This document shows, in pieces, positions 1,044 through 35,341 of a stretch of DNA of 64,000 nt (positions are counted from its first letter, which is position 1; the number at the start of each line of letters is the position of its first letter). Both the position numbers and the translations under genes were made by a program. The DNA comes from Escherichia coli (GTDB taxonomy: Bacteria; Pseudomonadota; Gammaproteobacteria; Enterobacterales; Enterobacteriaceae). Under the pieces are notes generated by a model. It searched no databases. It was not told the DNA's origin and was given only the letters and a program-made list of their open reading frames with translations. The DNA lies in the NCBI RefSeq assembly GCF_044324875.1, contig NZ_CP172185.1. The stretch is one strand, 5' to 3'.

Positions 1044-3052
<2,009 letters not shown>

Positions 3053-3060
3053 GAGAAAGT

Positions 3061-4281
3061 ATGACACCAGGCGGACAAGCTCAGATAGGTAATGTTGATC
3101 TCGTAAAACAGCTTAACAGCGCGGCGGTTTATCGCCTGATTGACCAGTATGGGCCAATCTCGCGGATTCAGATTGCCGAGCAAAGCCAGCTTGCCCCCGC
3201 CAGCGTAACCAAAATTACGCGTCAGCTTATCGAACGCGGGCTGATCAAAGAAGTTGATCAGCAGGCCTCCACCGGGGGCCGCCGCGCTATCTCTATCGTC
3301 ACCGAAACCCGCAATTTCCACGCAATCGGTGTACGGCTTGGTCGTCACGACGCCACCATTACTCTGTTCGATCTCAGTAGCAAAGTGCTGGCAGAAGAAC
3401 ATTACCCGCTGCCGGAACGTACCCAGCAGACGCTGGAACATGCCCTGCTGAATGCCATTGCTCAGTTTATTGATAGCTACCAGCGCAAGCTGCGCGAGCT
3501 GATTGCTATTTCCGTGATCCTGCCAGGGCTTGTTGACCCGGACAGCGGCAAAATTCATTACATGCCGCATATTCAGGTAGAAAACTGGGGGCTGGTAGAA
3601 GCACTGGAAGAGCGTTTTAAAGTGACCTGTTTTGTCGGCCACGATATCCGTAGTCTGGCGCTGGCAGAGCACTACTTCGGTGCAAGTCAGGATTGCGAAG
3701 ACTCCATTTTAGTGCGTGTCCATCGCGGGACCGGGGCAGGGATTATCTCTAACGGGCGCATTTTTATTGGCCGCAACGGTAACGTCGGTGAAATTGGCCA
3801 TATTCAGGTCGAACCGCTGGGTGAACGCTGCCACTGCGGCAACTTTGGCTGCCTGGAAACTATTGCTGCCAACGCTGCTATTGAACAACGGGTGTTGAAT
3901 CTGTTAAAGCAGGGCTACCAGAGCCGCGTGCCGCTGGACGACTGCACCATAAAAACTATCTGCAAAGCTGCGAACAAAGGCGATAGCCTGGCGTCGGAAG
4001 TGATTGAGTATGTGGGTCGTCATCTGGGCAAAACCATCGCCATTGCGATCAACTTATTTAATCCGCAAAAAATTGTTATTGCCGGTGAAATCACCGAAGC
4101 CGATAAAGTGCTGCTCCCTGCTATTGAAAGCTGCATTAATACCCAGGCGCTGAAGGCGTTTCGTACTAATCTGCCGGTGGTACGTTCTGAGCTGGATCAC
4201 CGCTCGGCAATCGGCGCTTTTGCGCTGGTAAAACGCGCCATGCTCAACGGTATTTTGCTCCAGCATTTGCTGGAAAATTAA
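3061..4281 (+). CDS. nagC: ROK-family transcriptional repressor of nag regulon
   Basis: 406-aa ORF with N-terminal HTH and ROK glucokinase-like domain (CHCGNFGCLE zinc motif); matches NagC. Confidence 0.97.
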   Translation: MTPGGQAQIGNVDLVKQLNSAAVYRLIDQYGPISRIQIAEQSQLAPASVTKITRQLIERGLIKEVDQQASTGGRRAISIVTETRNFHAIGVRLGRHDATITLFDLSSKVLAEEHYPLPERTQQTLEHALLNAIAQFIDSYQRKLRELIAISVILPGLVDPDSGKIHYMPHIQVENWGLVEALEERFKVTCFVGHDIRSLALAEHYFGASQDCEDSILVRVHRGTGAGIISNGRIFIGRNGNVGEIGHIQVEPLGERCHCGNFGCLETIAANAAIEQRVLNLLKQGYQSRVPLDDCTIKTICKAANKGDSLASEVIEYVGRHLGKTIAIAINLFNPQKIVIAGEITEADKVLLPAIESCINTQALKAFRTNLPVVRSELDHRSAIGAFALVKRAMLNGILLQHLLEN

Positions 4282-4328
4282 TGTGCTTTTATAGTGGCGC
4301 TTATTGTTGTCAATATTCTGGGTAGTCC

Positions 4329-5082
4329 ATGACCATTAAAAATGTAATTTGCGATATCGACGGCGTGCTGATGCACGATAACGTCGCCGTACCGGGTGCA
4401 GCGGAATTTTTGCACGGGATTATGGATAAAGGCCTGCCGCTGGTGTTGCTGACCAACTATCCTTCGCAGACCGGGCAAGATCTGGCGAACCGCTTTGCCA
4501 CTGCCGGTGTCGATGTACCTGACAGCGTGTTTTATACCTCTGCGATGGCGACCGCCGATTTCCTGCGTCGCCAGGAAGGCAAGAAAGCGTATGTGGTGGG
4601 CGAAGGCGCACTGATTCATGAACTGTACAAAGCCGGTTTCACTATTACCGATGTGAACCCTGATTTTGTGATTGTTGGCGAAACGCGTTCCTACAAACTG
4701 GGACATGATGCATAAAGCAGCCTATTTCGTCGCTAACGGTGCACGTTTTATCGCCACCAACCCGGACACCCACGGGCGCGGTTTTTATCCGGCGTGTGGT
4801 GCGCTGTGTGCGGGGATCGAAAAAATCTCCGGACGTAAACCGTTCTATGTTGGTAAGCCGAGTCCGTGGATCATCCGCGCAGCATTAAACAAAATGCAGG
4901 CGCATTCGGAAGAAACGGTGATTGTCGGCGATAACCTGCGTACCGATATTCTGGCGGGCTTCCAGGCCGGTCTGGAGACGATTCTGGTACTCTCCGGCGT
5001 TTCGTCGCTCGACGATATCGACAGTATGCCATTCCGCCCCAGCTGGATTTACCCATCGGTCGCCGAAATTGACGTTATCTGA
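4329..5082 (+). pseudogene. nagD: UMP phosphatase NagD/UmpH, interrupted by +1 frameshift (extra A in AAA run at 4696-4698)
   Basis: ORF track splits the gene into 4329..4715 and 4672..5082; total span 754 nt = 753+1; upstream frame reads ...VIVGETRSYKLGHDA* whereas intact NagD as I recall it reads ...VIVGETRSYNWDMMHKAAYF..., and the downstream frame continues NWDMMHKAAYFVANGARF... Confidence 0.85.
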
Positions 5083-5133: not shown

Positions 5134-6442
<1,309 letters not shown>

Positions 6443-6477
6443 GCAGCTCCTGCAATATATTGAATTTTCATGCTTTT

Positions 6478-6512
6478 GTAGGCCGGATAAGGCGTTCACG
6501 CCGCATCCGGCA
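6478..6512. repeat. REP palindromic element (second REP of a BIME-like pair)
   Basis: GTAGGCCGGATAAGGCGTTCACGCCGCATCCGGCA matches REP consensus. Confidence 0.6.
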
Positions 6513-6758
6513 TGAACAAATCGCACTTTGTCAGCAATTTGGCCCCCGTAAAATATAACCATTCAATAAAACCCGCTAAAAATTATCGATTCATCAATAA
6601 ATACATCCTTACACCAGACCTTTTTTCACCAATCGACAATCACCATTACGTTTTTTATTTTTTCACCGCCAAATCGCTTGCGCACAGTGCTGCTTTGCGG
6701 CATTTTTTTAAACAAGCAAACACAACAAGCAACAAATACCAGGTTAACGGAGAAGGTT

Positions 6759-8464: not shown

Positions 8465-8902
8465 TTATTGAGCTGCTTGTTGATTCTGATATGCAGTAAG
8501 GAAATGTTCCGGGTTTGCCACATCACTGTTTGACAACTCATCACTGTAGGCCACCGACCAGGTCGCCTGCTCATCCGGAATATGCAGGCTGCCATTCCCC
8601 TCTTTCAGGCGTAATAACTCAAAAGATTTGCCCTTAATTACGGCGGTATAGGATTTTTCACCTTCCTGTAATGCTTTCACTTTACAGCGAAAAATATGGC
8701 CATCGATGTCATTATCAACATGCGATACCTGAATGAGGGCTTCATTAGAGGCTTTCGGCCCTATCCGCATCATCCACACCACAGCGCCTTCCTGCCCACG
8801 ATAGCCAAAAACATATTTACCGATTTCCGGTTTGACCGTATCGGCAAACGCAGATTGCATAAGTAATAACGCACCCATCAGCGCCGTCATAAAACGCAGC
8901 AT
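8465..8902 (-). CDS. Hypothetical secreted protein (145 aa, signal peptide, no family recognised)
   Basis: ORF with GAGGGA RBS 5 nt upstream of ATG; N-terminus MLRFMTALMGALLLMQSAFA-DTVK looks like a Sec signal peptide with AFA-D cleavage site; E. coli-like codon usage. Confidence 0.6.
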   Translation of the reverse strand: MLRFMTALMGALLLMQSAFADTVKPEIGKYVFGYRGQEGAVVWMMRIGPKASNEALIQVSHVDNDIDGHIFRCKVKALQEGEKSYTAVIKGKSFELLRLKEGNGSLHIPDEQATWSVAYSDELSNSDVANPEHFLTAYQNQQAAQ

Positions 8903-16883: not shown

Positions 16884-18761
16884 TTACGGTTCAGGGATAC
16901 AAGCCACATCGCCATATTGGGGATGCCGAATAATTGCCTGCGGATCAAGCGAGCGCGTCCTGTCCATTTGGATTAACCCGTTCTTCGCCATAACAAATAT
17001 CTTTCTACCATCCGCTGAAAAACGAAGATGATTAACGTAGCTGGCAGGATAAACGCCAATAATCTGCCCGGCATTAATATTGAGCAGAATGACATAACCT
17101 TGCAGGCCATATGACACCAACGCTAAATACTGACCGTCCGGGCTAATACCCTCAACGGAATAAACGCTCCTGCTACACCATTGCGTCATAATGCTGGCTT
17201 GCTGATCCCCAACTCTTATACGTGAAATCCCCTGGCTGTCGGCAAAAATTACATCCCCGTTTTCAGGTCGAAAACGCATCGCCGATATCGTTCCACGCGC
17301 ATCACTAGCCGGATAGCTTTCTTTTTGATGCGTGATGGTATTGATGCGTACAATGTCACCTCTGACCATACCGGGTATCAACAATGTTTTTTCATCCGGG
17401 GAAAGTGCCATAACCCAGGCGCCTGGTTTACCGCTCGTCCCCGTCCCGTCGTATTTCTCCAGCGGGATATCCGCCACATGCTGATAAGCCACCAGATCAA
17501 TGGCTGACACACTATTACTGGTGCGATTCATCACCCAGGCTTTTGTGCCATCGCGCGAGAGGATAAGGCTGTCAGGATGTGCGCCGGTGGTAATCGACTG
17601 AATAATCTCCCCCGTCGCCACGTTAATGACCGATAACGCATTCGCTTCAAATGAAGTTGCATAAAGCAACGTTTCATCCGGGCTTAACGCCAGCGATCTG
17701 ACGGCCTGATCTTTACAGCCACCACAATGTTTGAGTGACTTTTCTTTCGCTATGGGCGCTGTAAAGGTATGCAGGATTTTCTTTTGTCCGAGGTCGAAAA
17801 CAACAATGCTGTTGGTGTTTTCAATTGCGGCATACAACGTATTACCATCCCGACTGATCGCCATATCATGGATATCGGCAATCTCAGCGAGCAAATCACC
17901 ACTGGCCTGCTCACGACTTACCGGAGCGGATAATGTTTCCCTGAGGGCGTTGCGCTCCTCCACTAACTGCTGCTTTTTTTGTCGTCGCTCTTGTTCAATC
18001 TCCTGCGGATAAAACTCTTCACGCAGGCTGTGCCTGACCAGTAAAACTGATTCATCAATCTGCTGCTGCACAAGCCAGATAGCCCCGGTAAGAAGAAGAC
18101 TGCCCGCAACAATAATCCCGCCTTCCGTAACAAGCCGGTTTTGCCCAGATAAACGCGCACTCAGCCACCCCAACGCACCACCCGCAATCAGGCCGCCAAT
18201 ATGACAAGCATTATCTATTCCTGTTTGCCGGGCACCATACAACAGTGTCAGCGCCACCATACCCAACAGAGAAAATACTCGCCGCTGGTTTTTATGGTAT
18301 GTGCCCGCACCTGAAGCAAGCTGTGTTGCTATCGCAGCGCCAGCAATTCCCATAATTGCCCCGGATGCCCCAACGCTGATGACTATCTGCTCACTTTCGC
18401 GTAACGCATAACAGGCGCTGATTAGCCCACCAAAGACGCCAGAGAATAGCCAGACAATCAGGAGTCGCCATTTCCCCAGTATCCGTTCCGCCACTGCCCC
18501 CACCACCAGGAGTGCAAACATATTCATCAGCAAATGGGGAAAACTACTGTGCAGAAAGACACTGCTCAATAAGCGCCAGGGTTCACCCGACAACGTGAGA
18601 GAAGCAACGTTAGCACCAAGATGGATGAGTGCGGATTGATCGACGTCTTCATAACTCATCCATTGTGCGAGATAACAAAATATCCCAACACAGAGCGCAA
18701 AAAGGATAAGAGTTATTGCGGGTAATTGAACATTTAACGGCTTAACCGAAGATGCAGACAT
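16884..18761 (-). CDS. Rhomboid-family intramembrane serine protease fused to C-terminal YVTN-type beta-propeller domain (625 aa)
   Basis: AAGGA-like RBS before ATG (reverse complement at 18759-18761); N-terminal 6-TM rhomboid core with WR loop motif, GASG (Ser133) and CHIGGLIAG (His187); 7th TM; coiled-coil-like EEFYPQEIEQERRQKKQQLVEERNALRE; then six repeats of the S-x-DG-x-x-LY/V...N-S-V-S-V/I-D type. Confidence 0.8.
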   Translation of the reverse strand: MSASSVKPLNVQLPAITLILFALCVGIFCYLAQWMSYEDVDQSALIHLGANVASLTLSGEPWRLLSSVFLHSSFPHLLMNMFALLVVGAVAERILGKWRLLIVWLFSGVFGGLISACYALRESEQIVISVGASGAIMGIAGAAIATQLASGAGTYHKNQRRVFSLLGMVALTLLYGARQTGIDNACHIGGLIAGGALGWLSARLSGQNRLVTEGGIIVAGSLLLTGAIWLVQQQIDESVLLVRHSLREEFYPQEIEQERRQKKQQLVEERNALRETLSAPVSREQASGDLLAEIADIHDMAISRDGNTLYAAIENTNSIVVFDLGQKKILHTFTAPIAKEKSLKHCGGCKDQAVRSLALSPDETLLYATSFEANALSVINVATGEIIQSITTGAHPDSLILSRDGTKAWVMNRTSNSVSAIDLVAYQHVADIPLEKYDGTGTSGKPGAWVMALSPDEKTLLIPGMVRGDIVRINTITHQKESYPASDARGTISAMRFRPENGDVIFADSQGISRIRVGDQQASIMTQWCSRSVYSVEGISPDGQYLALVSYGLQGYVILLNINAGQIIGVYPASYVNHLRFSADGRKIFVMAKNGLIQMDRTRSLDPQAIIRHPQYGDVACIPEP

Positions 18762-34777: not shown

Positions 34778-35341
34778 GTGCGATATCTGGCAACATTGTT
34801 GTTATCTCTGGCGGTGTTAATCACCGCCGGGTGTGGCTGGCATCTGCGTGATACCACGCAGGTTCCTTCCACTATGAAGGTCATGATCCTGGACTCAGGC
34901 GATCCGAACGGGCCATTAAGCCGTGCGGTGCGTAACCAGTTACGTCTGAATGGTGTCGAGTTGCTTGATAAAGAAACCACGCGTAAGGACGTTCCATCCC
35001 TGCGTTTGGGTTCTGTATCAATCTCGCAGGATACCGCTTCAGTTTTCCGTAATGGTCAAACAGCGGAATATCAGATGGTGATGACTGTCAGTGCGAGCGT
35101 ATTGATTCCGGGTCAAGATATTTACCCAATTAGCGCCAAAGTCTTCCGTTCGTTCTTTGATAACCCACAAATGGCGTTAGCGAAAGATAACGAACAGGAG
35201 ATGATTGTAAAAGAGATGTACGACCGTGCTGCCGAACAGTTGATCCGTAAACTGCCAAGCATCCGTGCTGCTGAAATTCGTTCTAACGAAGATGATGTAG
35301 CAGCAACGCCTGCACGCGTCTCTACCACGCTGGGTAACTGA
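34778..35341 (+). CDS. lptE: LPS assembly lipoprotein LptE
   Basis: 187 aa from GTG; [21 protein letters not shown] lipoprotein signal with lipobox LITAGC. Confidence 0.9.

Follow-up and report, generated by a model that had tools for sequence, protein, structure and literature searches.

Does the nagD (umpH) gene in this stretch of Escherichia coli DNA carry a genuine inactivating mutation or a sequencing error, and what would be left of the enzyme that it encodes? The question arises because the gene (4329–5082, +) measures 754 nt in the analysed DNA (64 kb in all, hereafter the window), whereas the intact reference gene measures 753 nt. When the window gene was aligned with the nagD alleles of E. 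coli 042 and 118UI, both intact and 753 nt long, all alignment columns matched except for one inserted A, the window having TACAAACTGG at the site where both references have TACAACTGG. TAC-AAC is changed to TACAAAC, with the A run at 4695–4697 and the C at 4698, and the inserted A is not assignable to any single one of the three A's. The frameshift call rests on this comparison against reference alleles and not on a chance pattern in the letters. The gene order nagE (partial)-nagB-nagA-nagC-nagD was the same in the window, 042, 118UI, and CH4796, with nagD as the last gene of nagBACD, which is divergent from nagE. The features of the locus are as follows:

1044–4281 (+): intact nagB, nagA, and nagC, which precede nagD in the nagBACD operon.
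4329–4715 (+): 5′ fragment of nagD, with 122 native codons (M1–Y122) and six out-of-frame codons (KLGHDA) before a TAA; from the ORF list and translation.
4695–4697 (+): frameshift site, AA to AAA, one gap column against 042 and 118UI; codon 123, the AAC of Asn123.
4696–5082 (+): 3′ part of nagD in the shifted frame, with native N123–I250 and the native stop; from translation.
4705–4710 (+): ATGATG, coding for native Met126 and Met127 when read in the downstream frame, 3–8 nt upstream of the premature stop; candidate termination-reinitiation start.
4713–4715 (+): premature TAA in the original nagD frame; from translation.
5161–6440 (+): IS621 (IS110 family), 1280 bp when the CT core is counted; transposase at 5353–6333; junctions placed by comparison with the empty 042 site.

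A one-base insertion in nagD, a length of 754 instead of 753 nt, and a frame 1 running through ...ETRSYKLGHDA into a stop at 4713–4715 had all been described in the first-pass annotation, and alignment and translation bore out each of them; the comparison with related strains that it had asked for returned the single inserted A against the 042 and 118UI alleles. Its count of 122 codons after the shift had to be corrected, as 128 native codons (N123–I250, 4696–5079) lie 3′ of the shift and 122 is the number of native codons kept upstream. The downstream frame reads (N)WDMMHKAAYFVANGARF... up to the native stop at 5080–5082 and can be called as a 124-aa ORF from the ATG at 4708, or alternatively from that at 4705; the 124-aa product has been gene-called in public contigs. 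With the extra base removed, the window protein was 100% identical to the crystallised K-12 NagD/UmpH (UniProt P0AF24, PDB 2C4N), a HAD-IIA ribonucleotide monophosphatase whose gene has the same last place in nagBACD. Unlike the K-12 gene, the window gene as written encodes two half-proteins, both below the NCBIfam equivalog cut-off.

On the opposite strand, a 142-aa ORF lies inside nagD (4278–4706, −), and the inserted base puts its ATG at 4706; were nagD intact, this ATG would open a frame reading MSQL followed by a stop. A 144-aa antisense version with a different start was called on scaffolds with an unshifted nagD, and the antisense ORF is therefore probably a shadow ORF and not a gene.

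NagD/UmpH is a HAD-IIA phosphatase in which the C2 cap is placed between motifs II and III. The C2 cap domain comprises residues 71–175 and the substrate-specificity loop residues 144–149 (PMC5132288). The break at codon 123 falls in the middle of this domain. Motif I (DIDGV, residues 9–13) and motif II (LLTN, residues 40–43) are located on the 5′ fragment, while motif III (GKPS, residues 175–178, including Lys176), motif IV (GDNLRTD, residues 200–206), and the specificity loop are encoded in the shifted frame, and no single polypeptide encoded by the window nagD was found to combine HAD motifs I–IV with the C2 cap. The NCBIfam model NF007762 (NagD/UmpH equivalog, HAD-IIA), with a curated cut-off of 368 bits, scored the 5′ fragment at 255 bits (profile positions 1–123) and the 3′ fragment at 267 bits (profile positions 127–250), against 550 bits for an intact allele that was the same but for the extra A. 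Since both fragments score below the cut-off and neither amounts to a full-length equivalog, the locus is, on sequence grounds, a nagD pseudogene and not a nagD gene. Translation from the native start would end after 122 native and six aberrant residues, a product that extends from motif I, with the catalytic Asp, through motif II to the middle of the C2 cap, and no one polypeptide would contain a complete HAD active site. Because motifs I–II and III–IV sit on separate fragments, little or no UMP/ribonucleotide monophosphatase activity is expected to remain, as judged from the motif topology and HAD enzymology.

A strain that truly has an intact nagD (site TCCTACAACTGGGAC), with the extra A as an artefact of the record, would explain the same letters, single-base indels being the commonest assembly error. 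The extra A was also absent from all complete RefSeq genomes of E. coli: none of 5,422 matched a 68-nt query around the site exactly, all remaining below 99% identity, and among the matches listed the value of 98.5% over 67 record bases corresponded to a one-base gap. The AAA allele of nagD is rare, and this rarity alone fits mutation and error equally well. What speaks against an error is that the same extra A was present in independently made assemblies from several submissions. The exact 128-aa truncated NagD product was found on 29 public contigs of NCBI, ENA, and Logan, one of its records being NCBI protein SRB22626.1. At least six separate samples were identified among the carriers, five as Logan SRA assemblies and one as an NCBI draft. 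The carrier loci that were retrieved (GCA_900482385.1, with SRB22626.1, and SRR32234848, SRR31121688, SRR21141798, and SRR31121872) were 100% identical to the window over an overlap of 3.6–5.3 kb, extra A included, so that the change was reproduced in five assemblies; this independent support consists of assembled contigs (the NCBI draft and Logan reference-free assemblies of raw SRA runs), not of read pile-ups. Since one SNP in 8.2 kb sets one carrier locus apart from the others, the sequences suggest that the carriers are closely related isolates and not a single resequenced culture; the samples might also represent repeat sequencing of very few isolates, with one SNP between them.

The window itself also argued against an error. 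When approximately 60 genes of the 64-kb window were compared with the reference genes of strain CH4796, nagD alone had a frame-breaking change, and the other full-length genes translated without internal stops. Technology-specific errors would concentrate in long homopolymers, whereas the inserted A extends a 2-base run (A2 to A3) and leaves the A6, A5, and T5 runs of nagD untouched, and such an artefact is missing from thousands of genomes that share the local sequence. As a contrast, nagE, nagB, nagC, nagD, and asnB were all split in GCA_900448615.1, which encodes the same NagA protein as the window and looks like an indel-rich long-read assembly. With identical product and DNA recurring in independent public assemblies, which is the decisive line of evidence, a one-off sequencing error is excluded for practical purposes; this explanation is largely refuted and we regard it as exceedingly unlikely. 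The first-pass annotation had left the choice between pseudogene and sequencing error undecided: the pseudogene held, and the error did not.

Two further genes of the window differed in frame status from reference annotations. A 145-aa hypothetical ORF (8465–8902) was intact in the window (438 nt) and annotated as frameshifted in CH4796 (437 nt), 042, and 118UI; likewise, the gene of a rhomboid-family protease (16884–18761) was intact in the window (1878 nt) and annotated as frameshifted in CH4796 (1877 nt). An exact-pattern scan of JGI/ENA metagenome contigs with the mutant 32-mer of nagD gave no match, and the wild-type 31-mer used as control matched one contig only, so that the scan was powerless. 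A phase-variable contingency locus, switching by a simple-sequence repeat, was rejected because the run has just three bases; all carriers had AAA and all other genomes compared had AA, with no length polymorphism among carriers.

Given a real frameshift, the enzyme could in principle persist in two pieces, with termination at TAA 4713–4715, reinitiation at ATG 4705/4708, and reassembly of the N-terminal (residues 1–122 plus six) and C-terminal (126/127–250) fragments into an active or partly active phosphatase. The two in-frame ATGs and the premature stop fall within the same 11 nt, both halves are predicted by gene callers, and jointly they keep all four motifs. A weak GGGA Shine-Dalgarno (SD)-like element precedes the ATGs, with a predicted anti-SD duplex of −3.9 kcal/mol that is on par with the −3.7 kcal/mol of the native nagD start, and translation may start at ATG 4705/4708. 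However, the cut lies inside the C2 cap domain and at no domain boundary, residues 123–125/126 would be lost and six foreign residues gained, the split is unconserved and confined to one clone, and literature searches returned no experimental precedent for a split NagD, all of which makes a functional two-piece enzyme very unlikely. We give next to no chance to the notion that the gene is functional as written, with full-length NagD restored by a programmed +1 ribosomal frameshift or by transcriptional slippage. Between TGA 4669 and TAA 4713, a stretch of 42 nt, a +1 slip at any point would yield a near-native protein, and for −1 slips in test genes, non-programmed suppression of 1–10% has been reported (PMC10861913); traces of near-native NagD from non-programmed slippage in this stretch are conceivable. 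A programmed event is another matter: AAA CUG GGA CAU GAU GCA UAA offers no re-pairing option, the stop follows a non-slippery codon (GCA UAA), the codon after AAA is the common CUG, a strong upstream SD is lacking (best anti-SD duplex −3.9 kcal/mol), and the A3 run is much too short for transcriptional slippage. The likeness to the programmed +1 frameshift of prfB (RF2) consists in the +1 shift needed to read through and in a stop that closes the zero frame soon after, but the window nagD has neither a slippery/stop context of the CUU-UGA type nor an upstream SD enhancer, and whereas programmed sites are conserved, this shift occurred in none of the 5,422 complete E. coli genomes.

A further possibility concerns not the product but the cause of its loss, in that inactivation of the UMP overflow phosphatase may have been favoured by selection in this clone, which would make it a case of parallel gene loss and not of neutral decay. 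In favour of selection, a published umpH deletion raises the final culture density, and two other independent nagD breaks were found within five codons of this site in unrelated backgrounds: one extra A, TCC to TCAC, in GCA_902810015.1 (L013; locus 5622–6375), and a stop at Trp124, TGG to TGA, in ERR12450131 (L017; locus 5623–6375). These two cases show that nagD loss recurs. However, the query by which they were retrieved, the 124-aa C-terminal ORF, finds only breaks at this position, so that their clustering near the window site is ascertainment bias and not evidence of a hotspot, and nagD was annotated as intact in every complete-genome record among the matches listed; adaptive loss is thus highly improbable. 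Most matches to the 124-aa ORF (L008–L012 and L014–L016, approximately 5856–5999) were rejected as scaffolding artefacts that mimic a split gene without a frameshift: in these ENA metagenome scaffolds, an otherwise intact nagD is interrupted by an N gap and by the duplication of a 55-nt overlap (reference positions 362–416), which produces the same 124-aa ORF. Even when both readings are taken jointly, i.e., a two-polypeptide NagD made by termination-reinitiation at the overlapping ATGATGCATAA and reassembling, perhaps under different regulation, or an adaptive loss of UMP overflow recurring here as in L013 and L017, only a small probability remains.

The reading that we prefer, and hold to be very likely, is a genuine AA to AAA insertion in codon 123 that was fixed in a rare E. 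coli clone and made nagD (umpH) a pseudogene. It is an ordinary clone-specific loss-of-function frameshift in a dispensable gene. With other lineage-specific pseudogenes caused by single-base indels it shares the one insertion, the otherwise undecayed sequence, the restriction to one clone, and the non-essential gene; its only oddity in comparison with them is the premature stop overlapping two in-frame ATGs, which makes reinitiation possible in principle.

The frameshift had also been placed immediately upstream of an insertion sequence, in a title hinting at a link between the two. IS621 is inserted between CTTATCAGGCCT and ACGCAG in the REP target that separates nagD from asnB, with the CT core at both junctions, and its left junction (5160/5161) lies 78 nt beyond the nagD stop and 464 nt downstream of the frameshift, to which the element is not adjacent. 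E. coli HS contains IS621 at the identical nagD-side junction and an intact nagD (RefSeq annotation). The HS copy is only 97.7% identical to that of the window, and for this reason the two are probably separate insertions; their shared junction points to recurrent sequence-specific insertion. HS and 41 other complete genomes matched across the nagD-IS621 junction, the identity of which was checked in HS only, and nagD was annotated as intact among the matches listed. IS621 was rejected as the cause of the frameshift, given the 464 nt between them, the clean junctions at a canonical target, and the intact nagD of HS; the suggested link is unsupported, as IS621 sits in the REP target normal for it, a site also filled in strains with an intact nagD. 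The short-read carrier contigs broke off at the left end of IS621 (5161) or a little way into it, and the NCBI draft GCA_900482385.1, thereby assigned to the lineage of the window, extended 119 bp into the same element at the same junction, from which it follows that the carriers share the insertion of the window. IS621 and the frameshift only co-mark one clone. To the right of the IS621 junction, sub-threshold Rfam matches at 6434–6517 to naRNA4 (38 bits, gathering score 59.5) and ES036 reflect the REP cluster in the nagD-asnB spacer. Around the frameshift site, Rfam and promoter/terminator scans yielded nothing relevant, only sub-threshold matches to REP-derived sRNAs and chance-level terminator matches.

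The best complete genomes were 99.3–99.5% identical to the window over 5–19 kb, in a mosaic pattern. Since no complete RefSeq E. coli genome exceeded approximately 99.5% over 19 kb, the lineage of the window is poorly represented among complete genomes. Within positions 1–26000, many genes (asnB, ubiF, miaB, ybeZ, ybeY, gltI, and hscC) were 100% identical to CH4796, and neighbouring ones (nagA, nagC, gltJ, gltK, and rihA) were 97–98% identical to it. The window LptE (34778–35341) is a divergent allele, with 89% DNA identity to CH4796 and 18 nt shorter in frame, while its neighbours are 99–100% identical; the same LptE protein was also found in 120 blocks of the public collection. Among public contigs matching the LptE, NagA, and IS621 transposase of the window, many of them unrelated or more distant, none was a close relative.

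NagD is non-essential. In a directed overflow pathway, excess UMP is broken down by UmpH, with SurE/UmpG as partial backup, and a single umpH deletion leaves pyrimidine end-product levels unchanged, impairs growth on an orotate upshift, and raises the final culture density (PMC4470420). UmpH is, in addition, a target of GlnK (PMC11617674). With a dispensable gene, a partial backup, and no operon gene downstream, loss of nagD would be tolerated, and no polarity is expected because nagD is the last gene of nagBACD. The phenotype of the frameshift is predicted to be mild, and the mutation is probably neutral.

For annotation, nagD should be recorded as a pseudogene in this clone, neither repaired as an error nor annotated as two genes; in one public draft, the 128-aa fragment has already been entered as a NagD protein (SRB22626.1). 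Taken together, the extra A and IS621 at the nagD-asnB REP site provide a handy marker for a rare lineage, and beyond correct annotation and this marker the finding has little significance. The clone is a natural umpH mutant, and as such it could show how E. coli copes without its main UMP overflow valve.
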